Assembly (NCBI GenBank): GCA_048938385.1
Contig: JBHLMG010000038.1
Span: 1 to 11,388 of the forward strand
DNA: 11,388 nt
DNA from: Promethearchaeota archaeon
GTDB lineage: Archaea > Asgardarchaeota > Hermodarchaeia > Hermodarchaeales > Hermodarchaeaceae
Reading direction: 5' to 3'
Below the pieces are notes generated by a model that saw only the letters and a list, made by a program, of their open reading frames with translations, searched no databases and was not told the DNA's origin. Every line of letters begins with the position of its first letter. The stretch's first letter is position 1. Of the stretch, positions 1 to 11,388 are shown one piece after another. Both the position numbers and the translations under genes were made by a program.

Positions 1-2442
1 GTAATGGGGGGGCAAGACAATTTGTCCTGCCACGCCCATTAAGGGTTCACAGATAAACGCTGCGACCCCCTTTCCTGTGCTTTTTAATTCATTTACTACT
101 GTCAAAATATCAGTGGCGTATTTTTTCCCTGCGTTATGATCCTTCGCTTTGTATTCACCCCGATAGACATCCGGGGTGCGGACTGTGTGGACAAACGCTG
201 GGGCCCCTCGCCCCCCAGGTCCATCGAACTTGTAGGGGCTGATGTCGATCATCGTGCCGGTGTTCCCGTGATAGGCCCCGTTGACTACAATGACATCGGA
301 CTGTCCGGTGTGGGTTCGAGCCATGCGGAGGGCGAGTTCGTTGGCCTCGCTCCCACTGTTGACGAAAAAGCACATTCGGAGAGGCTCCGGTAAGGTAGCA
401 ACCAGGCGCTTGGCGTAGTTAACCAAGGTTTCGTGTAGGTATCGGGTGTTCGTGTTCAAGACGGCGGCCTGGCGATGGAGGGCCTGTACCACCTTCGGGT
501 GGGAGTGGCCCACTTGTGGAACATTGTTGCGTCCGTCTAAATATCGGCGTCCGTCGGCATCGTAGAGGTATTGCATGTACCCCCGCACAATTTGGATGGG
601 TTGCTGATAGGAAAGGCTCAGGGCCTTCCCAATCAACTCACCTCGTGCTGTAAGGATTTCAGGTGTCTCCATGGGTTTGTGGGGGAATCGTTCTAACAGA
701 ATTCCTAGTATCGTGTTCGGATCAGGGCAGATACTCGTCCATGGTCGCCGTTGCCGGGGAAATGCAGCGATGGGAAAGTCACCTTTCCAGTCGAACATGT
801 CGGAGATCAACTGGAACCGAACCGATGGCGGCCAATCCCCGTTCGCTGGGGCGTCGCCGACCTGCCCAATTTGATCCCCTTTGTGGATGTGCTGACCGAC
901 TGTTCGTCCGTCAAGGGAGGTCCGACTCAGATGGGCGTAGAGGGTGTAGAATGTGAGGGCACCATCGTTGACGGTGTGCTCGAGGATAATCGTTGGACCG
1001 TTTCGGCGGAATCCTGGGTTCTCTTGTACGCTGTGAATGACACCGTCTAGCGGGGCGAGAACGGGGGAGCCGGAGGGCGCAAACAATTCCATGCCTAGAT
1101 GAATCGTGCGAGATTCAAAGCCCTCATGCAATGTTGACGGGATCTGCTCCTCTTGGTATACTAACCGTGCTTCGTTGTATCGACCCACTCCTACAGCTGT
1201 CCCATCAGCCTTGAGGCGATTCGCGATGAGTTGGGTAAAGGACGGGGTGTCATGGATGTCAACTAAGGCGCCGTATTCGAGGCTTCCGACGCTGAGGTCG
1301 AAGACAGTGACAGGTTCCGTGCGGATGTCGTAGTGTAGGAGGGTCCCAACCTGGTTTTGATTCTCCTGTAACCAGGTGATGATTTCCTGGCTCTTGGGGT
1401 TGGCAGGGAGTCCACAGGCATCTCGGAAGATGTAGGTAGCCAACCGCGGATGCACCGTTCGTAGTTGCTCTAGCATCTTCCAGGCGGGCTGTTCGGAGAT
1501 GGTGAGGTACTCGTTATCAGGTTCCAGCGTTTTCTGGTACGCTGAAATGGAGACGCTCAGCGCTAGACGCGTGCACACCAGATGAAACAGCAACTCGAGT
1601 TCCAACTCCGTAAGTGGAAACACGGAGTGATAGCCCCCCACCACCTGGGCTGCTGCGGTTATCGGGTCAGGTTTTCCCAGGATGGCGTAGGTGACAGCTA
1701 CCGCGATTTCGAAAACTGAATGGGACCACACCATGTCCCCAAAATCCAGAATCCCAAACTGTAAAGGCGTCGTTGGCTCGTGCCAGTTTACAATGATGTT
1801 GTAGTCATTACCATCGTTGTGAATCACACTGGAACGAAGGCGGGCAAGGTGAGGCTGCACCTGGGCCTCAAACACCGTGAGGAAATGCTTCACCAGCGCC
1901 CGTCGATCCTCGTCTGTGATGTGGCCAAGATACTGCCGGATGGTAACAGGTGCGTGCTTCAAATCCCAGTAGAGCTCTCGCTTCGCAGCAGGATGCGCAA
2001 AGTTGTCCAGGGCTCGGGATATTTGCCCGATGAATACTCCCAATTCTCGCAGGAAATACTCCGAGTGTGGCTTCACCTCCGCCATCACCTTCCCTGGTAG
2101 GTAGGAGACTAACCGCACAAAATGCGAATTGCCAGCAGCATCATCAAACACACCAATCTGCTCACCAGAGCGCGTCGGAATTAGATGTGGACTCAACATC
2201 CCTTCTGCAGTGTTCTGTAAATGCGTCATAGCTTGATTCTGAAACTCTAAGATTTCTCGTTTCTCTGATGTCGCCGCAATCTTGAGCACATACTCCTCAC
2301 CCGCACCCGTGCGTACATAGAAGTTCCGATCCCGCTCGCTCGGTAACTCATGAATCTCTCCCTCTACATCATACAATTCCTTGGCGATGCTGAAGGCTTG
2401 GTCTTCGGTGAACGGGGGACGCAATTGATCTCGACCTGACAC
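1..2442 (-). CDS. Fusion of an APH/hydroxylysine-kinase-like phosphotransferase, a degenerate M23-like domain and a class III PLP aminotransferase (AGXT2L/phospho-lyase-like); runs off the left edge
   Basis: Absent from the ORF track because it has no stop in the window. Hand translation from GTG at 2442 (GAGGTG 7 nt upstream) is open to base 1 (814 codons). Kinase motifs: LPSERDRNF, YVLKI, VIHNDGNDYNIIV, GILDFGD. M23-like segment: GRYNEAR..RTIHLGMELF..YTLYAHL..WPPSVRFQ. Aminotransferase-III motifs: IVRGYMQYLYD..YLD..NNVPQVGHSHP, LNTNTRYLH, FVNSGSEANELALR, AYHGNT, AAFICEP. Confidence 0.92.
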   Translation of the reverse strand, partial: MSGRDQLRPPFTEDQAFSIAKELYDVEGEIHELPSERDRNFYVRTGAGEEYVLKIAATSEKREILEFQNQAMTHLQNTAEGMLSPHLIPTRSGEQIGVFDDAAGNSHFVRLVSYLPGKVMAEVKPHSEYFLRELGVFIGQISRALDNFAHPAAKRELYWDLKHAPVTIRQYLGHITDEDRRALVKHFLTVFEAQVQPHLARLRSSVIHNDGNDYNIIVNWHEPTTPLQFGILDFGDMVWSHSVFEIAVAVTYAILGKPDPITAAAQVVGGYHSVFPLTELELELLFHLVCTRLALSVSISAYQKTLEPDNEYLTISEQPAWKMLEQLRTVHPRLATYIFRDACGLPANPKSQEIITWLQENQNQVGTLLHYDIRTEPVTVFDLSVGSLEYGALVDIHDTPSFTQLIANRLKADGTAVGVGRYNEARLVYQEEQIPSTLHEGFESRTIHLGMELFAPSGSPVLAPLDGVIHSVQENPGFRRNGPTIILEHTVNDGALTFYTLYAHLSRTSLDGRTVGQHIHKGDQIGQVGDAPANGDWPPSVRFQLISDMFDWKGDFPIAAFPRQRRPWTSICPDPNTILGILLERFPHKPMETPEILTARGELIGKALSLSYQQPIQIVRGYMQYLYDADGRRYLDGRNNVPQVGHSHPKVVQALHRQAAVLNTNTRYLHETLVNYAKRLVATLPEPLRMCFFVNSGSEANELALRMARTHTGQSDVIVVNGAYHGNTGTMIDISPYKFDGPGGRGAPAFVHTVRTPDVYRGEYKAKDHNAGKKYATDILTVVNELKSTGKGVAAFICEPLMGVAGQIVLPPHY

Positions 2443-2552
2443 TAGCTTACACCTCTGTATATCACAGCATATGTAATCCAAAAAATACTCTGCTGCAGAG
2501 AGGCTAAGACGAAAATCGAAAGAATCGAGCTAGAAAAAACCAACACTCAAAG

Positions 2553-2668: not shown

Positions 2669-3247
2669 TTGTCGGAAATACCATCCCAAGATGGGCTGTT
2701 TATTGTTGACCAGCAAAAATGCGTGATCAAAGATTTTGATGCCCCAGGATGGATCCTTGATATCGGGGGCGGCGGTGAAGGGATCATTGGACGCCTTAAA
2801 GGATCCAACGTCATCGCCATCGACATTCGAAAAGAAGAACTCTTGGAAGCCCCACCAGGACCCTTAAAACTCGTTATGGATGCCACTGACCTCCACTTCC
2901 TCGATAACACCTTCGACACCGTTACCGCCTTCTTCTCCCTCATGTACTTGCCCTCCGAATCCCGCCCCCAAGTCTTCCACGAGGTAACCCGCGTCCTCGC
3001 ACCTGAAGGGAAATTTTACATCTGGGATGTCACGATTCCCCCGGTCACCGATCCCACGAAACATTTGTTCGTCGTCCCCCTCACCATCCAACTCCCCGAT
3101 GAGGAAGTCCAAACCGGCTACGGCGTCCCCTGGCAAGGGCGGAAACAATCCCTCAGCGATTATCTCCAACTCGCCCAAAAAACCGGACTCAAACTCGTCA
3201 CCCACCAAACCACCGACCACATCTTCTACATCGAATTCACAAAGTAA
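2669..3247 (+). CDS. Class I SAM-dependent methyltransferase (Methyltransf_11/25-like)
   Basis: Motif I ILDIGGGGEG, then VIAIDI, MDATDLHFLDNTFDTVT and RVLAPEGKFYIWD. TTG start preceded by AAGGTG. Confidence 0.9.
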   Translation: MSEIPSQDGLFIVDQQKCVIKDFDAPGWILDIGGGGEGIIGRLKGSNVIAIDIRKEELLEAPPGPLKLVMDATDLHFLDNTFDTVTAFFSLMYLPSESRPQVFHEVTRVLAPEGKFYIWDVTIPPVTDPTKHLFVVPLTIQLPDEEVQTGYGVPWQGRKQSLSDYLQLAQKTGLKLVTHQTTDHIFYIEFTK

Positions 3248-3269
3248 TCCATGACCAAATCACACTCCA

Positions 3270-3300
3270 ATAAACGAAAAAGGTGGTGTCCATCCCAACA
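3270..3300 (+). repeat. Intergenic direct repeat copy 2
   Basis: ATAAACGAAAAAggTGGT-GTCCAtCCcAAC. Shares the upstream ATAAACGAAAAA with the copy at 7058. Confidence 0.75.
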
Positions 3301-3502
3301 GTATAGGTCAACATCTCTCCTCCTTCTCCGACGCTCTTGAAAGGGAGATTTTGCCTTAGATGAACTTATGAAAGGGGCATTGGATTTTTCTCAAAAATTA
3401 GCTTTGCATGTGCGTACAGACCAATGCGTTCTTTTATTCGCTGACAAATGTCTACAGCACACATTCTAGCGCCGATTGCTCCTTTTCAGCGGGGTTAATG
3501 GT

Positions 3503-4312
3503 ATGAAAAAAGCGTATGCAGTAGGCTTACTTCTACTCGGATTACTCATTGCCTTCTCTCCTACACCGATCACGCGCGGGCTCCAACTCTCTTCATCTAC
3601 CAAACAGCTCCCCGTTTACATCGATCTGGTACCTAATTGGGATTTCGCCGAGATTGAATCGGGTGGGTGGGACGGAAACGACCATAATGCCAGCAAACCC
3701 ACCTTCTGGTACTTCACCGGTGATACCACTGGTCCCAAAGAACAATACCGAATAATCAACGATACCGCAAACGGTGGTGATGTCCACACCCTGTTCCTCC
3801 AACCTACCCACGCCAACCAAGAACACACCGTTATGTTCTGGCAAGACTTCACCACCCTCGACATTAACCAGGTCTCCATCCAGTACCGCAGTTGTGCCAC
3901 GGGTCCCACAGCCCTCATCCTGCTCTACGGGCTCAACGCTAGCATCACACCCGACACGCCCCTTCCCAACGGCACCATTCCCTACCTCACCACGCTTCAT
4001 CCCTCTCTCAACGAAACTCCTGGCTATTGGTCCAACTACACCACCGCCACCATCTCCCTATCCAACCTCCCCAACACCTACCACCACTACCGCATCCACT
4101 GGCAACTCATCGAAGCCCCCGGAAAACCCGACGCCCAACTATACATCACCTACTGCCGTGTTACCGGACCCCAACTCCTACTCCCTCTCATCTGGCCCCC
4201 AATCGCAATCCCAATCATAGGCCTTGTCGCCGGCATTATCGTTTCCATCATCATGCTCCTCGTCTACCTCAAAAAAACAGGGAAACTCCACTTACCCAAA
4301 CTAAGCCGATAA
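3503..4312 (+). CDS. Hypothetical secreted, membrane-anchored surface (glyco)protein
   Basis: ATG at 3503 (in frame with track ORF 3476) gives signal peptide MKKAYAVGLLLLGLLIAFS. C-terminal TM helix IAIPIIGLVAGIIVSIIMLLVYL followed by basic KKTGK. Several N-x-S/T sequons (NAS, NDT, NAS, NGT, NET, NYT). Confidence 0.8.
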   Translation: MKKAYAVGLLLLGLLIAFSPTPITRGLQLSSSTKQLPVYIDLVPNWDFAEIESGGWDGNDHNASKPTFWYFTGDTTGPKEQYRIINDTANGGDVHTLFLQPTHANQEHTVMFWQDFTTLDINQVSIQYRSCATGPTALILLYGLNASITPDTPLPNGTIPYLTTLHPSLNETPGYWSNYTTATISLSNLPNTYHHYRIHWQLIEAPGKPDAQLYITYCRVTGPQLLLPLIWPPIAIPIIGLVAGIIVSIIMLLVYLKKTGKLHLPKLSR

Positions 4313-4324
4313 CACGACCACATT

Positions 4325-4364
4325 GAGGGCGTCCACCCTAACCTGGCAATTCACCTGCCAAGAA
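4325..4364 (+). repeat. Intergenic direct repeat copy 3 (long form)
   Basis: gagggcGTCCACCCTAACCTGGCAATTCACCTGCCAAGAA. Aligns over ~35 bp with the copies at 8713 and 10706. Confidence 0.85.
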
Positions 4365-4381
4365 CATCACATGTCCAATTA

Positions 4382-5590
4382 CTAATGGTCTAAAGAAGTC
4401 CTGCGGCGATAGACAACGATTACCAAGACAACACAGGCAATTATGATGGCTGTACCACCCGCAATCACAGGTCCATAAGTCAGCAGCATCGAACCCCAAT
4501 CCGTTAATGTCAAGGGGTGTTGGGCAAGCACCCAGTTCATCAAGAAAAGAGCGGCCGCCCAGTTTTCCTCGCAGGTGGGTAAGATTTCCACTTCAGGTAA
4601 CTCAAAGTAGGTCAAATCGAACTCTGGATTGTTTGGACGAAGTTCGATCGTGAGACCCGGAATCCCTTTTTCCTCATAAACCCAATCTCCCATATCACCC
4701 ACCGTCAGGTATGTTGCACCGCCCTGTACGACGGTATACTCTTCCCCATGGACCGCATGAATCGCTTCGGCCATTCCCTGCGACAACGCCTCCATGCTAG
4801 CGGCATCAACGGGGGGGTCGGGTGTGTAGCCCCAAGGGTAGGCAATCATTTGCCAGTAGCTATGATAACTGACCACCGCCTGGAAGTCATTCTCCACATC
4901 CAAAATCAAATCGCGCATTGCCACCGTTTCTGGCTCTGAAAACGCCGAGGGGCCCCAATAGGTCTCATCAATGGGATTGGGCGACCCATCCGCAATCCCC
5001 TCCTCAACATCTTGCCCCCAATTAGATGTCCCATAGTTTCGGTTCAGATCTACACCGAATGTCCCATCACTATTATTCACGCGATTCTTTCGCCAATACC
5101 GTGAATTCTCCCCCGGACTCTCGGGGGACTCAAAATACGCCCGACAGAATTCAAGACCATCAGGGTTCACGACGGGCACAATCCAAATCTCGCAATTATC
5201 AACAAACCTTTTGACGACAGGGTCAGAGTCATACAACTCCACCAGCTTCCACGCAAAGTAGTAGGGGACTTCTGCTGAAATCCACTCCCGAGCATGATGC
5301 AGCCCCACAAAGAGAACATCCGGCTCATGCCGCTCCTTGATATTCGGATAATCACTGATCTTAATCGCCCAGATGGGGCGTCCCTCCACGCTATACCCCA
5401 CAGCATCCAGCCACACTATCGGTGAACTACTCAATGCTAGAAGCCCTGCCACAAACTCTGAATATGTATGGTATTCCGTCCACTGAACCGGAACCAAGGA
5501 CACGTTAGCCCAAACCCTTGGCGGCCTTACCAAGACGCACAACGCCATCACTAACACAGCAACTACACAACTACTCTTCAACCGCCTCAA
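4382..5590 (-). CDS. M14 zinc carboxypeptidase (carboxypeptidase T-like), secreted and C-terminally anchored
   Basis: HHAREW (HxxE Zn ligands), VNPDG, WRKNR, GVDLNRNY, FSEPET, SYHSY (third Zn ligand) and TIELRP (catalytic Glu). N-terminal signal; C-terminal TM followed by RRR. Confidence 0.93.
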   Translation of the reverse strand: MRRLKSSCVVAVLVMALCVLVRPPRVWANVSLVPVQWTEYHTYSEFVAGLLALSSSPIVWLDAVGYSVEGRPIWAIKISDYPNIKERHEPDVLFVGLHHAREWISAEVPYYFAWKLVELYDSDPVVKRFVDNCEIWIVPVVNPDGLEFCRAYFESPESPGENSRYWRKNRVNNSDGTFGVDLNRNYGTSNWGQDVEEGIADGSPNPIDETYWGPSAFSEPETVAMRDLILDVENDFQAVVSYHSYWQMIAYPWGYTPDPPVDAASMEALSQGMAEAIHAVHGEEYTVVQGGATYLTVGDMGDWVYEEKGIPGLTIELRPNNPEFDLTYFELPEVEILPTCEENWAAALFLMNWVLAQHPLTLTDWGSMLLTYGPVIAGGTAIIIACVVLVIVVYRRRTSLDH

Positions 5591-5683
5591 AACAACACTT
5601 CCAATAAAATATCAACGCAGAAGCGCACTTCTAGTTAAACGCAATAGCCCTTCTGAACGATAAAAAATACCCGATACAGGACC

Positions 5684-5713
5684 AAACAAGCGGTCGTCCA
5701 CTCCAGCTCACGG
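5684..5713 (+). repeat. Intergenic direct repeat copy 4
   Basis: aaacAAGcGGTCGTCCACtCcagctCACGG; core at 5696-5701. Confidence 0.75.
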
Positions 5714-5895
5714 AACACATACTGAAGTTGCACGTATATTCTGGCTTGTTAATCGCCATTTTCTTGCGTTTCGAAAGCGTATTTGCACTTTCCACCAAAT
5801 ACCTGAAAGGGACGGGTCAATTCATCCAATTCGGTATGTAGAAATATCATGGACCACAAAGGCTTACCAATGGTTTCATCGTGGGAGGTGATTCA

Positions 5896-6111
5896 ATGGC
5901 AAGAGTATATCGCATTCTCCTGCAAATCCTCGCAGTTTTGAACCTAGTGGTGGTTAGCCTGAATTTAGTGCTTCCCCTCGTCGGCCTTCCTGTAAATGGA
6001 ACGCCAACCCCCGCCCAAGCAATCCTAATCTACATCTATTTCGGAACCTTCACCTGGCCGATATTAACTGGGCTCATTCTTCTCCTTAATGTCTTCAAAC
6101 CTAGTGACTGA
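5896..6111 (+). CDS. Small two-TM hypothetical membrane protein (71 aa)
   Basis: Strong RBS GGAGGTGAT just upstream of ATG 5896. Two hydrophobic stretches: ILLQILAVLNLVVVSLNLVLPLVGL and AILIYIYFGTFTWPILTGLILLL. Confidence 0.72.
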   Translation: MARVYRILLQILAVLNLVVVSLNLVLPLVGLPVNGTPTPAQAILIYIYFGTFTWPILTGLILLLNVFKPSD

Positions 6112-6196
6112 ACGACTGGACTCCCCGGTGAAGGCACTCCTTGACAATCACTCATCGAAAAACGAGAACAGACAAAACCCATTACAGAGCCTACAG

Positions 6197-6234
6197 AAGT
6201 GCTAGTCCACACCAGCAGCTCGTAAAGCACCTGC
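6197..6234 (+). repeat. Intergenic direct repeat copy 5
   Basis: AAGTGcTaGTCCACaCcagcagctcgtaaagCACCTGC; core at 6205-6210. Distal CACCTGC is shared with copy 3. Confidence 0.62.
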
Positions 6235-6288
6235 AGTTCAGGCATGCAATCCTAGGCTTTAATTGAAAGCTGGTAATTTTTACGAGTT

Positions 6289-6918
6289 CTACATCTTTTC
6301 CAGTTCCCCAGTGGGTGGATACAGCGCGAGTTTTCTCTCAATCTCATAGATTAAAGGAATGATTCCTTTGAGATCCCCAATGGCCTTAAGACAGCCTTTG
6401 GCAAAAACCTCGTCTTCAAACTGGTCATAGAGTGAACTAAAATAGGATCCGGAGTATTCCGCGTCTTTGAAATTACTGAAAAGACCTCTTGATGTGGTGA
6501 GCCCCAAATAGGTTTTATTTAGCAGCATCATTAAGGAGACCGACATACCACTAACAAAGTCGAGATTCCCGTATTCATCGACGGGACCATCTTTGCCTTC
6601 CAGAAACGCGGCTAGCGCCTTCTTCCGCTCCTTTTTCCATTTCGTAGGATCTTTCTCCCACTCATACAGCGTAAAGTAGGCAGGAAGCCCCAACATCATT
6701 TCTTCCGCCAAGGCTTCTGGCAGCTGCCTTTGCAGTTGACAGACCCCAGGATAAATGTCCCGCATCAAGGCTCCAAACTTCTCCACCCCTTCTTGCCGAT
6801 CTGGATACTCCGCCTCCAAAAACGCCTTTATCTTCGGCACATAATCTCTGGCAAAAAACGCCACCAAATACGAAACTTTGTCCGGCTTCACTCGTTTCCC
6901 CTGCAAAAACTGGACCAA
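6289..6918 (-). CDS. Hypothetical soluble protein (209 aa)
   Basis: Open frame with TTG start 5 nt after GGAGGTG. Plausible helical composition; no motif recognised. Confidence 0.75.
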   Translation of the reverse strand: MVQFLQGKRVKPDKVSYLVAFFARDYVPKIKAFLEAEYPDRQEGVEKFGALMRDIYPGVCQLQRQLPEALAEEMMLGLPAYFTLYEWEKDPTKWKKERKKALAAFLEGKDGPVDEYGNLDFVSGMSVSLMMLLNKTYLGLTTSRGLFSNFKDAEYSGSYFSSLYDQFEDEVFAKGCLKAIGDLKGIIPLIYEIERKLALYPPTGELEKM

Positions 6919-7057
6919 ACGAACACCTCCATCTGCGATTAATCGAGCACCACTCCGTACTCACTTAAATTACTAATGGCTTAGCACATTTGATTTGGAT
7001 CATCATAGTCAGGAACCACCAAGATGCAACAACTCCTCGTAGCGAACACTGACACAA

Positions 7058-7101
7058 ATAAACGAAAAATGGTCGTCCACCCAAGCAGTCTAACCAATTC
7101 A
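7058..7101 (+). repeat. Intergenic direct repeat copy 6
   Basis: ATAAACGAAAAATGGTCGTCCACCCaagcagtctaacCAATTCA; core at 7075-7080. Confidence 0.85.
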
Positions 7102-7151
7102 TAGAAGCTTAGACCTGCTCAAATGTCGGGTTTACAAATTTTCACTTCAGC

Positions 7152-7164
7152 TTATATACTCCGT
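7152..7164 (+). promoter_or_regulatory. Putative archaeal TATA box plus shared flank (TTATATACTCCGT) upstream of the beta-helix gene
   Basis: TTATATA box. The same 13-mer occurs on the minus strand at 10877-10889. Confidence 0.5.
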
Positions 7165-7232
7165 CTCATTTGTAAACACCTCTCTTCACACCCAAATAAA
7201 TCCCTCTTCCAGCTACCCGAAATCGCATTATC

Positions 7233-8639
7233 GTGACCAAGAAGGTAGCGATAACTCGAGGGATATATGCATTGAAAATTCATAACTCAAGCAGGTATGT
7301 GGTCATAACCGGGTTGTTCTTGGTATTGGCCATCTCACTGTTTACGAGCAGTCTCACAATCGCTGCACCATTCGAACAACGCATCACTCCGTCAAATGAC
7401 ATCACTGGTACCACCGACTGGCAAAACCTGCAAACCGCCTTCAACGCGGCTTCAGGAATTCCTGGTGCGGTAATCGAACTCCAAGCCGGAACATACTACA
7501 TTAATCAGGCTGTTGTAATCAAAGATTTCGTCGGCACATTCAAAGGCGCGGGTATGGAACAGACGATAGTTCAGACGCCGGGTGGAGATTATCTGTTTCC
7601 CAAAGTGACTGAAGGTCCGGTCTGGGAAGCCCCCGGCATGTTCATCTTCTACTACGACCAATTAGGCGAAGCGCACACACCAGCGCATCTTACCCTCTCC
7701 GACATGACTTGGCACGCTATCGGTCAAACTGAAGGTTGGGTAACTCATGTGCCTTTCCTCGTTGACCAATTTGCCTACATAAGCGCTGTATATGGGCGGT
7801 ATACCGGAATTGAAGACGATGAAGTGTCATACATCAGCACAACTGCGGAACGAATGCAATTTCTGGGTGACTCGTATCCAGAAGGCAAACTTGGACCCGT
7901 GAATGTCATCAATGGATTCATCATGGAACCCGAATTCTTTGCTACCGACGATGATCCACCAGAATTCTATACTGACAAACAGCTCTGTGGAACCTACACT
8001 TGCATCAGTTCGAAATTCCAAAACATCCTCTATGCCTACAACACCCTAATGATCACTGACTCCAGTGTCACAGTTGGTGGAAAACCCCAATTCCAAAACA
8101 CCTTCATTGACTGTGCTACAGGAGTTGACCTCTTTAACTTAGACAACTCCGAAGCAGAAGTGTCATACTCTGAAACCTTTAATTCCAGCGCGGTTATCAT
8201 CGAACTGTATGCACCTGGCCTGACCCCATCAACTTTCACCATCAAACACAACACCATTCGACAACGCCCATCAGCATGGTTTGCGGGCGTAGAAGTCTGG
8301 AGCTATGGCCTCTATTATGGACAAGAAAACATCGATACTCTCAACATCACACAGAACACCATCATCTCGGAAAGCCACAATCCACCCTATGGTCCCATCT
8401 TTTGTTTCGGTGCCCATAACACCAACATTACCAACAACATGATTCAAGGAACTGGAGAATCCGGAATCTTCCTTGGTGGACTATCAACTGGCTGCTACAT
8501 CCGTGGAAACAACCTCAAACACTACGACGCAACAGCCCAAGACATCTACCTGGGATCCGCTACCAGCCATTGCACCGTCATCCTCGGGGCAACCGACACA
8601 ATCACAGACGATGGAACAAACAACACCATCCAAGGCTAA
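7233..8639 (+). CDS. Secreted right-handed parallel beta-helix (pectin-lyase-fold/NosD-like) protein
   Basis: N-terminal hydrophobic segment; cap motif DWQNLQTAFNAA..VIELQAGTYYIN..FKGAGMEQTIV; repeated TIKHNTI, NITQNTI, NITNNMI and YIRGNNL rungs. The true start may be TTG at 7272. Confidence 0.8.
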   Translation: MTKKVAITRGIYALKIHNSSRYVVITGLFLVLAISLFTSSLTIAAPFEQRITPSNDITGTTDWQNLQTAFNAASGIPGAVIELQAGTYYINQAVVIKDFVGTFKGAGMEQTIVQTPGGDYLFPKVTEGPVWEAPGMFIFYYDQLGEAHTPAHLTLSDMTWHAIGQTEGWVTHVPFLVDQFAYISAVYGRYTGIEDDEVSYISTTAERMQFLGDSYPEGKLGPVNVINGFIMEPEFFATDDDPPEFYTDKQLCGTYTCISSKFQNILYAYNTLMITDSSVTVGGKPQFQNTFIDCATGVDLFNLDNSEAEVSYSETFNSSAVIIELYAPGLTPSTFTIKHNTIRQRPSAWFAGVEVWSYGLYYGQENIDTLNITQNTIISESHNPPYGPIFCFGAHNTNITNNMIQGTGESGIFLGGLSTGCYIRGNNLKHYDATAQDIYLGSATSHCTVILGATDTITDDGTNNTIQG

Positions 8640-8712
8640 ACCCACTCATTGGTGCTTCCAGAGAGAAGCACCCCCGCACCCTTTTTACTCCTGAAACTCA
8701 AGCACTATATAC

Positions 8713-8756
8713 CGAAAAAGTGGTCGTCCACCCTAACACGGCAATTCACCGTGTTA
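8713..8756 (+). repeat. Intergenic direct repeat copy 7 (intact core, with a perfect 8-bp inverted repeat)
   Basis: CGAAAAAGTGGTCGTCCACCC-TAACACGG-caattca-CCGTGTTA; core GTCCAC at 8726-8731, hairpin at 8734-8756. Confidence 0.9.
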
Positions 8757-8858
8757 ATTGATCGATGACAGCTCCCGGTTTTAGTACCGTTGTATTCCTC
8801 ATATGAGCTGTACTGTCTTCTGTCCCGTTCTTATAGAGACGCTGGACAAAATGGAGTT

Positions 8859-10664
8859 TTACGATGTGCAAATCTGGAGGCAGTGTTGTGGACAACGATG
8901 GACGCAAGCATTACAATTGATACACCTTTGGGAGTGGGCTGGGTTAGCTTTGTGTCTCGCAGTATCTAACTGGAAGATATTCATCGGACAGACTTGTACA
9001 CAGACTCCACATCCATTACACTGTTCGGCATCCTGAGCAATTTGTCCATAGGGTTGAAGGGGATACCTCCCCGTAAAGAATGGCATTTGTGAATGCCCTC
9101 GCTTGTACAGCAACTGACCCAAATCGCTGGGTAAGATTGGCGTCATTCCATTCAAGTCCACACCCAAGATTATCACTACACTAATCGTGACTAGCAGTTC
9201 CCACAGCAACCCCAACAAGCTCCCCGTTGTATAAAGCGCAACGAGTAGGACTCCGCTGATGGCGCAAATCCCATATACCAGCGTTTTGACGAAACCTGAT
9301 CTGCTGGGGAGGTAGGGTATAAGAAGATAAGCACCATAAGTGAGCAGCCAAATGATTCCCAGGGTTAGGAGAAGCCTCGTGGGCGCAAAAATCAGGCTGA
9401 GCGGGACCGCACAGAGCGAAATCATAATAGCATAGAGGCTTGCCATTTCTAAGCGCCGCGACACCGGAAACCGTACGGTTCGCATGCACTCGGTTTTCTT
9501 CGCTTCGTTCTTCAAATAGGCTGGGATGTCCGCGGCATACACGGGACCAAACTGGGCTGTCCATCCCGTCTCCTGCTTAATCACATCGGGATCAACGCCT
9601 GGTGCCGCAAGTTGCGGAAGAATCAGACCCCGGTGTCGTACCAAATTATTGATACCACTCAGCTTTATCGCCGCGATAACAGAGTGTGCCGTAAAATCAC
9701 CCCCACACGCTGCACACCACACATTGATGCCCCGCGTTGGAGCCACCAACACATAACAATCAATCTTCGCTTGTTGGAGAGTTTTCAGAACCCGGCGAAT
9801 GGTCAGATCGTAATTGCATGTGACTAGCACGGGGCTTTGAGGCGAGGGCTGACCCACAGGGAGAAGTCCGGGCGAAGTAGCAACTGCCACCCAGCGAAAA
9901 ATCGTTTCCGCCACATACTTGAGTCGTGATCCCACCTGGACTGTCGGATACGAAGACTGTGATTCTGGGGGTAGTTGCTCTTGGTGGGGTTTCGTTACAA
10001 TCAGTAATAACAACGAGTCTAGTAGATATCGCTTCTGAACCAGGAACTGAAACCCGAACTTTCTGAGCTTTTCTTCAAGATTTTTCACGCGATGGGTGGT
10101 GGTCTGACTCAGGATAAAAGTGAACACCGTAAGAGGTACGCGTAAAACATAATAGGGAAGCATTTTTCGTATCGAACGGGGACGGACTTCATCCACGATG
10201 ATCAGGCGTCCATCCGGGCGAAGCAGACGCCTTGCTTCACGAAGCAGGTAGGCCTGTTCCACATCAGACAATTCGCTCAACACTAAGGTGGCAGTCACCA
10301 CATCAAAGGAGGCATCAGGAAACTGATCCGTCTCCGTCAAATCCATCTCCCGAAACTGCACCCTATCATCCAACTTCTCCTGCACTGCTTTGGCTTGAGC
10401 TAACGCAATCATAGCAGGTGACACATCAATTCCAATCACCTGCGCCCCTTTCCGCGCACAAAGCCGCGCCAATGTACCAGTCCCACTTCCAATATCAAGA
10501 ACATGGTCAGATGACCCAACGATTTTATCAGCTATCCACTGTTTAAGAATTGCATCAACACCCAATGTGAGAACCTTAAGGCCCTGATCATACCGCCACG
10601 GCGCTGACTCCAGCAACTTCATGAGCACAGCAGTTGACGCAACTAACGCCTCCTGGTCATCCAC
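8859..10664 (-). CDS. Fusion of a class I SAM methyltransferase, an HgcA/CdhD-like corrinoid-binding domain, TM helices and a 2x[4Fe-4S] HgcB-like ferredoxin (HgcAB-like fusion)
   Basis: MTase: VLDIGSGTGT, GIDVSPAMI, FDVVTATLVLSEL, LLRPDGRLIIVDE. HgcA-like: SPVLVTCNYDLT, TRGINVWCAACGG (cap helix), LILPQLAAPGV, FGPVYAADIPAYL, MRTVRFP. About 4 TM helices. Ferredoxin: CNGCGVCVQVCP and CINCNACVHRCP. Start codon uncertain. Confidence 0.9.
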   Translation of the reverse strand: MDDQEALVASTAVLMKLLESAPWRYDQGLKVLTLGVDAILKQWIADKIVGSSDHVLDIGSGTGTLARLCARKGAQVIGIDVSPAMIALAQAKAVQEKLDDRVQFREMDLTETDQFPDASFDVVTATLVLSELSDVEQAYLLREARRLLRPDGRLIIVDEVRPRSIRKMLPYYVLRVPLTVFTFILSQTTTHRVKNLEEKLRKFGFQFLVQKRYLLDSLLLLIVTKPHQEQLPPESQSSYPTVQVGSRLKYVAETIFRWVAVATSPGLLPVGQPSPQSPVLVTCNYDLTIRRVLKTLQQAKIDCYVLVAPTRGINVWCAACGGDFTAHSVIAAIKLSGINNLVRHRGLILPQLAAPGVDPDVIKQETGWTAQFGPVYAADIPAYLKNEAKKTECMRTVRFPVSRRLEMASLYAIMISLCAVPLSLIFAPTRLLLTLGIIWLLTYGAYLLIPYLPSRSGFVKTLVYGICAISGVLLVALYTTGSLLGLLWELLVTISVVIILGVDLNGMTPILPSDLGQLLYKRGHSQMPFFTGRYPLQPYGQIAQDAEQCNGCGVCVQVCPMNIFQLDTARHKANPAHSQRCINCNACVHRCPQHCLQICTS

Positions 10665-10699
10665 TCCAACATTAGGCTTCCTAATAGAAAAAAGCTAGC

Positions 10700-10860
10700 A
10701 AAAGCAAAGTGGTCGTCCACCCCACCACGGTAATTAACCTGCCAGGAATAATGCACCCGGACTCCTTACCGCACATACCGTCCAAAGCGACCCCGAAGGG
10801 CCGCTTCAGAAGCAATGAATTCCTAGGAGGTGATCCTGTAGTCGTGGGTTTGTTTAGAAG
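10700..10860 (-). ncRNA. Candidate structured non-coding RNA or long 5' leader (unknown family)
   Basis: On the minus strand: TTATATA box at 10889-10883; GGATCACCTCCT at 10836-10825; 9-bp stem AAGCGGCCC-TTCG-GGGTCGCTT at 10806-10785, whose C(UUCG)G loop and G-U pair only work on this strand; possible further stems (GGAC..GTCC or CCGGG..CCTGG); terminal hairpin GGGTGG-ACGA-CCACTT followed by T-rich sequence. Boundaries are estimates. Confidence 0.5.
10706..10748 (+). repeat. Intergenic direct repeat copy 8 (intact core; 3' end of the candidate minus-strand RNA)
   Basis: AAAGTGGTCGTCCACCCcACCACGGtAATTaACCTGCCAGGAA; core GTCCAC at 10715-10720. Confidence 0.9.
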
Positions 10861-10876
10861 AGTTAAGTCACAAGTC

Positions 10877-10889
10877 ACGGAGTATATAA
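10877..10889. promoter_or_regulatory. TATA element, possibly bidirectional (LLM gene on +, candidate RNA and HgcAB-like gene on -)
   Basis: ACGGAGTATATAA reads TATATAA on + (about 45 nt before ATG 10932) and TTATATAC on -. Confidence 0.5.
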
Positions 10890-10931
10890 CCGCATACCTC
10901 TAATCAATCAACGACGATGGAAGGTGATAAG

Positions 10932-11388
10932 ATGCCTCTCAGCTTCGGAATTCAAATTGGGAATTACTTCGGTTTTGATTATGATACGATAAAGGAAATC
11001 GCACTGACGGCAGAAAAAATTGGCTATGACGCGTTGTGGATTAGCGACCACTTCTTCATTGATAAGAACCCCGCAACGACATCGTGTCTAGAAGCGTGGA
11101 CTGTTCTCTCCGCCTTGGCATCCATCACCAAGACACTTCGGTTGGGCACCTTGGTGACCTGTAACGGATTTCGATATCCCACGGTCTTGGCTAAAATCGC
11201 TGCAACCGTTGATGTGATTTCGAATGGTCGATTGGAGTTTGGCATTGGTGCGGGCTGGAAAAAGAATGAACACGTTAACTACGGGATTCCTTTCCCAAGT
11301 CTCAAAGAGCGAATGGATCGATTGGAAGAATCCGTACAGATAATCAAGAAGCTGTGGACTGAGCCAAGTGTCAGTTTTGATGGAGTAT
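10932..11388 (+). CDS. LLM-class (probably F420-dependent) oxidoreductase; runs off the right edge
   Basis: Absent from the ORF track because it has no stop in the window. ATG 10932 follows AAGGTGAT and translates as MPLSFGIQIG..AEKIGYDALWISDHF..LEAWTVLSALASITKTLRLGTLVTCNGFRYPTVLAKIAATVDVISNGRLEFGIGAGW..ERMDRLEESVQIIKKLWTE. Confidence 0.93.
   Translation, partial: MPLSFGIQIGNYFGFDYDTIKEIALTAEKIGYDALWISDHFFIDKNPATTSCLEAWTVLSALASITKTLRLGTLVTCNGFRYPTVLAKIAATVDVISNGRLEFGIGAGWKKNEHVNYGIPFPSLKERMDRLEESVQIIKKLWTEPSVSFDGV

Follow-up and report, generated by a model that had tools for sequence, protein, structure and literature searches.

Two mobile elements of Ca. Heimdallarchaeum, HeimM2 and HeimV2, have inserted exactly where the single 16S gene is followed by a tRNA gene, and a homing-endonuclease homologue of HeimM2 has been proposed to direct this site-specific insertion (Wu et al., 2022, PMC8813620). 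They are the closest published precedent for the locus described here; in both cases mobile elements of Asgard archaea lie directly downstream of a single 16S rRNA gene. HeimM2 and HeimV2 are, however, single elements of 8 kb and 44 kb, with neither an array of one-gene cassettes nor repeats of the 16S tail described for them; moreover, the HeimM2 nuclease is a homing endonuclease of the rRNA-intron type, whereas the protein found here resembles PD-(D/E)XK enzymes, and the archaeal order and family differ.

Mobile endonuclease open reading frames at the 3′ ends of genes, typified by the mORF of Allomyces mitochondrial atp6, bring along a replacement gene tail and displace the resident tail downstream. 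The present locus shares with these genes, and with free-standing homing endonucleases, insertion at the 3′ end of a conserved gene, duplication of the tail and, in two relatives, a putative nuclease gene beside the target end. It differs in having an rRNA trailer, not the end of a coding sequence, as its target, and in that many cassettes with non-nuclease cargo form arrays, most of them without a nuclease. Integrative elements targeting the 3′ ends of tRNA and tmRNA genes were reportedly treated by Williams in 2002. There too the 3′ end of a stable RNA gene is targeted, direct repeats flank the insert and tandem insertions yield several partial copies; those elements carry integrases, whereas here none lies in or beside the inserts, the inserts are single genes and the target is an rRNA trailer.

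Integrons and CALIN, including those of archaea (Ghaly et al., 2022, PMC9668308), likewise combine mostly single-gene cassettes with co-oriented sites, accessory cargo and shuffling between relatives. In contrast, no IntI was found here, the cassette genes point in either direction, and each site is a homologous copy of the tail of a host RNA gene, reaching to a varying extent in the 5′ direction; the primary site is apparently the 16S trailer and not an attI beside intI. Identity with integrons was considered and rejected: no integrase lies at the arrays and the cassettes are not co-oriented. Clear attC R″/R′ boxes were not seen by eye.

Here we analyze a stretch of DNA of 11,388 nucleotides (the window), which is the entire contig C14 of an Asgard archaeal genome (G000; 2.48 Mb, 51 contigs, ~90% complete). 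The initial annotation of the window described a candidate structured RNA whose 3′ end is an array repeat. We conclude that this element, at 10838-10695 on the minus strand, is very probably a paralogous copy of the 16S rRNA 3′ terminus and of the pre-16S 3′ trailer, closing the cassette of a luciferase-like monooxygenase (LLM) gene as its boundary. This confidence extends to the identity of the element and to its boundary role; the enzyme that may have placed it there is considered separately.

Results

Identity of the element

A profile built from four genuine 16S ends alone (genomes G016, G006, G008 and G014) matches the window element over profile positions 14–157 with E=1.4e-18. This is the top match in the whole G000 genome, followed in the ranking by copies on contigs C42 and C39 and then by the short array repeats. 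By BLAST, the element is 89% identical to the genuine trailer of G006 and 69% identical, over 149 nt, to that of G014. Direct reading finds the 12-nt 16S terminus GGATCACCTCCT, the anti-Shine-Dalgarno end, as an exact match; it aligns with the ...CCTGCGGCTGGATCACCTCCT of the genuine 16S genes in G016, G006 and G008, runs straight into AGGAATTCAT... as it does at genuine loci, and is preceded by degenerate 16S homology back to ~10841. These matches establish the homology, and the window copy appears to contain the last ~12–17 nt of mature 16S rRNA together with the whole ~135-nt pre-rRNA 3′ trailer. The ~150-nt RNA gene of a new kind proposed in the initial annotation would instead be such a partial copy. 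Its accompanying statement that the element does not fold as a tRNA agrees with ARAGORN, which reports no tRNA or tmRNA at 10700-10890, and an Rfam scan of the same segment gives no match even at E<=10.

By DNA search of relatives, nine of the genus's 14 other genomes contain the ~140-nt unit, as does one from a second genus, and many of the aligned matches start with ...CCTGCGGCTGGATCACCTCCT, that is, with the 16S rRNA 3′ end. Genuine 16S genes were located with the Rfam archaeal SSU model RF01959 in G016 (C21, 5951-7493), G006 (C71, 619-4212, with introns) and G008 (C48), and the unit sits immediately 3′ of each of the three. The end on contig C26 of G014, a contig that stops inside the gene, resembles the other genuine 16S ends. 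The same model finds no 16S gene in the ~90% complete G000 assembly, and it is from the relatives that we infer the link of the window contig to a genuine 16S locus. Upstream of 10841 the LLM promoter and gene stand in place of a 16S body and 5′ leader, so the window copy is not itself a genuine functional 16S locus. Coordinates of the features are collected in Table 1.

Table 1. Features of the window, with the basis on which each was assigned.
Feature	Positions	Strand	Basis or remark
Probable tail copy, 16S 3′ terminus and apparently complete trailer	10695..10838	-	Probably closes LLM cassette and opens next; profile and BLAST
16S rRNA 3′ terminus GGATCACCTCCT	10825..10836	-	Direct reading
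Trailer hairpin H1	10777..10813	-	RNAfold and covariation count
Array-repeat core GGGGTGGACGACCAC	10709..10723	-	Leader/trailer cofolding in relatives
T-tract TTTGCTTTTGC	10698..10708	-	After core in nearly all copies
Predicted recombination breakpoint inside tail copy, approximate	10781		BLAST segments
TATA box, TATATAA on + / TTATATA on -	10883..10889		28 nt upstream of LLM ATG
LLM gene, cut by contig end	10917..11387	+	Pfam Bac_luciferase 7.7e-38; reverse orientation relative to tail copies
Next cassette, 601-aa methyltransferase / CdhD(HgcA-like) / 2x[4Fe-4S] fusion	8859..10664	-	Pfam
Short tail copy, sub-terminal segment and core	8711..8759	-	
Short tail copy	7052..7088	-	
Short, degenerate tail copy	5681..5707	-	
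Short tail copy, degenerate core, sub-terminal segment of G000 type	4325..4364	-	
Weak tail copy	3270..3323	-	nhmmer E=0.1-0.3

The 16S genes of this genus carry introns, and that of G006 spans 3.6 kb. A mini-insert of ~32 nt lies exactly 21 nt before the 16S 3′ end in G006, G008 (C48, ~1100-1445) and G014 (C26, ~17060-17130); G008 has a second 16S insert a few bases upstream of it, and G016, which belongs to the other genus, has no inserts. This mini-intron of genus g1 was considered as the 5′ limit of the 16S-containing copies and dropped; the limits vary (about -20, -9 and -6).

Structural features and their origin in pre-rRNA

The fold of the whole 164-nt element (-58.5 kcal/mol, z=-2.0) is mildly better than that of shuffled sequences, and most of its signal is due to one hairpin, H1, which alone reaches -22.3 kcal/mol (z=-4.2, RNAfold) and in genuine trailers of genus g1 -21 to -25 kcal/mol. 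The initial annotation had read H1 as a 9-bp hairpin closed by C(UUCG)G with a G-U pair; the UUCG loop (10797-10794) and the wobble (G10801-U10790) are there, but the stem is longer, with 16 bp and one bulge. Conservation of H1 was scored by folding each copy separately and by an explicit structure count. Across 25 copies, 82% of cells are paired versus 44-52% in a control with the partners slid, and compensatory changes occur at nine of 14 pairs, with 30 double-change cells (0/500 shuffles as high). G-U pairs, possible on the 16S-sense (minus) strand only, are frequent in H1, and the structure therefore evolved on that strand; together with the 16S tail homology this bears out the earlier view of a sequence derived from a stable RNA read from the minus strand. 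A conserved local element of the 16S trailer, the UUCG hairpin is supported by covariation. RNAalifold on the raw MAFFT alignment was discarded as a measure, for it returned a weak alternative helix and missed H1 because of gap placement.

Also confirmed on the minus strand are the terminal hairpin, GTGG-ACGA-CCAC, and the T-tract that follows it; the 4-bp GTGG/CCAC helix is included in the repeat core. Cofolding joins the pre-16S leader (about -60 to -128) to the trailer (about +36 to +121) through 49 intermolecular base pairs in G006 and 56 in G016, two genomes of different genera, and the core (GGGGTGGACGA) pairs with CGUCCACC(U)C of the leader at the base of the processing stem. No canonical bulge-helix-bulge motif is evident in either of these MFE structures. 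At genuine loci, the core is thus modeled as the 3′ side of the basal helix in the processing stem that leader and trailer of pre-16S rRNA form together. Because archaeal RNA polymerase terminates at oligo-T, the T-tract would, by analogy, likely be the end or terminator of the pre-16S transcript in its genuine context.

The RNA-like features of the window copy are, then, inherited from pre-rRNA. In the MFE fold, AACCCACGAC (10850-10841 on the minus strand) does pair with GTGGTGGGG near the 3′ end, as initially proposed, but the orthologous copies of G006 and G005 do not preserve the closing helix AACCCACGAC/GTGGTGGGGT. At these LLM tails H1 is weakened as well (-11.5 and -10.5 kcal/mol, respectively, vs -22.3 in the window), and the cores are degenerate. 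Other pseudo-copies also lack H1, and many keep it with differing stem sequences. The structural conservation upstream of the LLM gene to which the initial annotation had looked is therefore not borne out in these relatives, and the loss of both H1 and the closing helix at orthologous loci fits inheritance followed by relaxed constraint rather than a selected small RNA gene. The fully intact hairpin of the window copy could reflect either recent origin or selection.

Repeats and cassettes in the window

A 14-mer search of the window with <=3 mismatches gives seven matches vs 1.0 expected, a number that none of 200 shuffles reaches. Five copies are clear (4327, 5692, 7071, 8722 and 10711) and two or three are weak; seven further copies lie on contigs C39 and C42 of the same genome, and all copies on the three contigs are co-oriented. 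Three of them (C14 10711, C42 1524 and C42 5614) are homologous well past the 40-nt repeat, and long copies are found in mid-array as well (e.g., C42 1505-1658). Among 400 genomes of the phylum, the core is multi-copy in family f1 only, matches elsewhere staying at the level of a reversed-pattern control. It is nearly invariant across two genera and is the best-conserved part even of pseudo-copies, an observation biased by searching with the core.

The 210 nt that end in the repeat at window positions 6873-7082 are 84% identical to C42 1326-1535, an identity that makes them the same cassette end at two array positions of one genome. Plus-strand GC skew is strongly negative (down to -0.55) over window positions 2800-8800, whatever the gene direction.

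In both G006 (C9) and G005 (C226), a 321-aa orthologue of the LLM protein is encoded between two repeats, with a long 16S-containing copy on the promoter side, and the downstream neighbors differ between genomes. The LLM gene is itself a cassette, and the window element closes it and opens the cassette of the 601-aa protein. A TATA box is present on the minus strand where the initial annotation placed it, and its assignment as the promoter of an RNA gives way to a better one: it stands 28 nt from the ATG (10917) of the divergent LLM gene and is conserved with the LLM upstream region in G006 and G005. Spacing and conservation mark it most simply, and most likely, as the LLM promoter.

The cassettes are shuffled among genomes. 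Four cassettes of the window, which encode the methyltransferase, a 278-aa and a 209-aa protein and the 601-aa fusion, occur in relatives in another order and with other neighbors; the 601-aa cassette, for example, recurs on contig C31 of G008 at a different array position. The cargo of 64 further cassette ORFs is metabolic (methyltransferases, Fe-S proteins, radical SAM enzymes, flavin oxidoreductases, a nitroreductase and a creatininase), and gene orientation is mixed in the window and in relatives. The 601-aa protein joins in a single chain a SAM methyltransferase, a CdhD/HgcA-like corrinoid domain and a 2x[4Fe-4S] ferredoxin, all on a mobile cassette. At the other end of the window, a large ORF (1-2481, minus strand) that runs into the contig end lies past the last weak repeat; it encodes APH phosphotransferase, M23 peptidase and class-III aminotransferase domains together and may be array flank or another cassette.

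Arrays at genuine 16S genes

In G016 (C21), G014 (C26) and G008 (C48), arrays of co-oriented tail copies begin at the genuine 16S trailer itself. Three to four relatives from two genera demonstrate the same arrangement, in which tail copies divide shuffled one-gene cassettes from the true 16S trailer onward, and longer arrays occur on contigs C9 of G006, C25 of G007, C51 of G003 and C31 of G008. The copies are alike at their 3′ end (core and T-run) and unlike in their 5′ extent, which ranges from -20 inside the 16S gene down to the last ~40 nt.

Recombination within the tail

The two halves of the window copy have different affinities. Positions 10781-11388 match the LLM loci of G006 (91%) and G005 (89%), whereas 10700-10777 find their match in C42 copies of G000 itself (82-84%) and none in the LLM tails of G006 and G005. 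Judged from these alignments, the window copy is a chimera, with a putatively cassette-borne 5′ part, a resident (G000-type) 3′ part and a breakpoint near 10781. Percent identity by alignment columns was abandoned in favor of BLAST segments, because misaligned sub-terminal types made it understate the similarity of the 3′ half to C42.

An occupied and an empty site can be compared directly. In G005, an insert of ~970 bp separates two tail copies, both of which overlap ~94 nt of the single tail present at the same place in G006; insertion therefore duplicates the tail. As in mobile genes of the mORF type, duplication of the target 3′ end is thus found together with occupied (G005) and empty (G006) alleles. 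The insert (G005 C226; L041 1604-2528) contains no ORF >=110 aa and, by eye, one short gene of ~95 aa ending ...EFPDYYDRLERLEDEAKSYWENK; it seems to be a very small cassette. Along the tail profile the breakpoints differ, that of the window lying at about position 75 and that of G005 at about 105; both values are blurred, as they were taken from the ends of BLAST alignments among repeats that resemble one another.

The ~30 nt before the core are lineage-specific: six G000 copies share a G000 type, all three G016 copies, including the genuine one, a G016 type, and copies elsewhere a common type. The 5′ parts of tail copies, by contrast with this resident end, go with the cassette. Chimerism, tail duplication and lineage-specific 3′ parts all fit recombination within the tail in which the resident 3′ part is left behind each insert. 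The suggestion that the repeats are 3′ ends of a stable RNA gene displaced by insertion is thereby upheld, with 16S rRNA as that gene, but the window copy, taken initially for the gene itself, is one of the displaced ends and closes the LLM cassette. In G008, one copy on contig C31 (L038 2982-3061) has a sub-terminal segment of the G000 type (GTTAATTACC...), the other G008 copies being of the common type, and may be a trace of cassette transfer between lineages.

Candidate enzymes

Searches of the arrays revealed no integron integrase, tyrosine recombinase or reverse transcriptase. Matches to PF00589 lie on other contigs only, with one Xer-like gene (313-315 aa) per genome and, in some genomes, a few other tyrosine recombinases. 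No recombinase family is among the most frequent Pfam families of the 64 cassette ORFs, and neither a nuclease nor a recombinase was found in the window, C39 or C42. The reverse transcriptase family PF00078 was not found in the ~90% complete G000 genome, a result that lends no support to the earlier idea that the RNA guides or primes a capture reaction.

The first slot behind the 16S gene encodes, in G008 (L042 1603-2862, minus strand; P0001) and G006 (C71 1-468), a 419-aa protein with the motif PDLII...GECK (PD..ExK). It bears a lead-level resemblance to PD-(D/E)XK and Mrr_cat clusters of a protein atlas, and has no Pfam family and no useful PDB sequence match. Homologues occur in three of the 15 genomes of the genus, with a remnant in G014 (C19). 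From its sequence we regard it as a putative PD-(D/E)XK-like nuclease.

Discussion

We propose that one-gene accessory cassettes pile up directly behind the 16S gene in this archaeal family. Each insertion would be a recombination event inside the tail that duplicates it, leaving co-oriented copies of varying 5′ extent and a common 3′ end between the cassettes, and the tail would serve as portable homology for the insertion and exchange of cassettes. In at least some lineages, the process would start with a free-standing homing nuclease of the PD-(D/E)XK type in the first slot behind the 16S gene, and kept copies would probably also stop read-through from the rRNA promoter. This homology-driven insertion and exchange via the tail, nuclease-started in at least some lineages, is the mechanism we prefer, tentatively and at a little below an even chance. 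With more reserve still, we suggest that the 16S tail copies may be the working sites of a new kind of gene-capture platform in Asgard archaea, in which the trailer of the single rRNA gene would be the primary docking site, cassettes would bring a transferable stretch of this trailer along for homology or recognition, and insertion would proceed by nuclease-initiated repair or a new recombinase and not by an integron integrase.

Alternatively, and in our judgment unlikely, capture could be site-specific and integron-like, with a recombinase encoded elsewhere that recognizes the core and its partial palindrome GTGG-ACGA-CCAC and inserts or excises circular cassettes at one fixed position, the end of the 16S trailer being attI-like and the tail copies attC-like. 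Every cassette boundary has a repeat in the same orientation regardless of which way the genes point, cassettes carry one gene each and are shuffled between genomes, and archaeal integrons are enriched in Asgard archaea (PMC9668308), all of which agrees with such capture; yet no tyrosine recombinase lies on any array contig, the Xer-like gene is elsewhere, and the most frequent families of the cassette ORFs include no recombinase. The near-invariance of the core in two genera, and its rank as the best-conserved part, would suit a protein recognition site, subject to the search bias noted above; the R″/R′ boxes (RYYYAAC / GTTRRRY), however, are by eye loosely echoed at most (CCCTAAC ... GTTAAT in the 8722 copy), and the copies are homologous to a host gene tail over up to 150 nt, unlike attC sites. 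Short G000 copies do have hybrid arms on either side of an AATT center, and blurred breakpoints are compatible with a fixed crossover at the conserved core, but the two breakpoints lie at the differing tail positions given above.

Rather improbable as well is a reading in which the copies are a functional RNA or terminator module, kept as terminators or insulators against read-through from the strong rRNA promoter and between cassettes, or as processing or stability elements for the pre-rRNA machinery; it is compatible with an origin in the 16S tail. The hairpin and T-run always lie in the 16S-sense orientation, but the gene upstream of the window copy points away, so that no sense transcript is there to terminate. 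Many pseudo-copies with stems of differing sequence keep H1 intact, and its G-U pairs are possible on this strand only; however, stem diversity can come from different donor trailers and not from selection in place, several pseudo-copies lack H1, including the LLM tails of G006 and G005, and the cores decay too, as in these same two tails. Last, an independent small RNA gene of ~150 nt, transcribed from a TATA promoter of its own and acting as array leader or as guide or primer for capture, is largely refuted and very improbable: in its favor are a TATA-like box ~35 nt upstream of AACCCACGAC, an MFE structure that closes 5′ to 3′ and the absence of an Rfam match, but the homology with genuine 16S tails runs end to end, the closing helix and hairpin are not conserved at orthologous loci, the TATA box is placed for LLM and travels with it, long copies stand in mid-array too, and no reverse transcriptase was found in G000.

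With the element identified as a 16S tail copy, one candidate for a new RNA family proves false, and a stray 16S tail, an array repeat and a “structured RNA” are explained together. The array repeat is not an arbitrary site; it corresponds to the base of the predicted pre-16S processing stem and the likely end of the transcript. That origin links the cassette arrays to a locus no cell can do without and yields an insertion model that is concrete and testable. Such tail copies break metagenome-assembled genome (MAG) assemblies at the 16S gene and can mislead the annotation of rRNA ends or of the anti-Shine-Dalgarno sequence. The cargo seen consists of bacterial-type metabolic genes, among them methyltransferases, Fe-S and flavin oxidoreductases and an HgcAB-like fusion, and the capture mechanism, if confirmed, would represent an integron-independent route of accessory-gene turnover in Asgard archaea.
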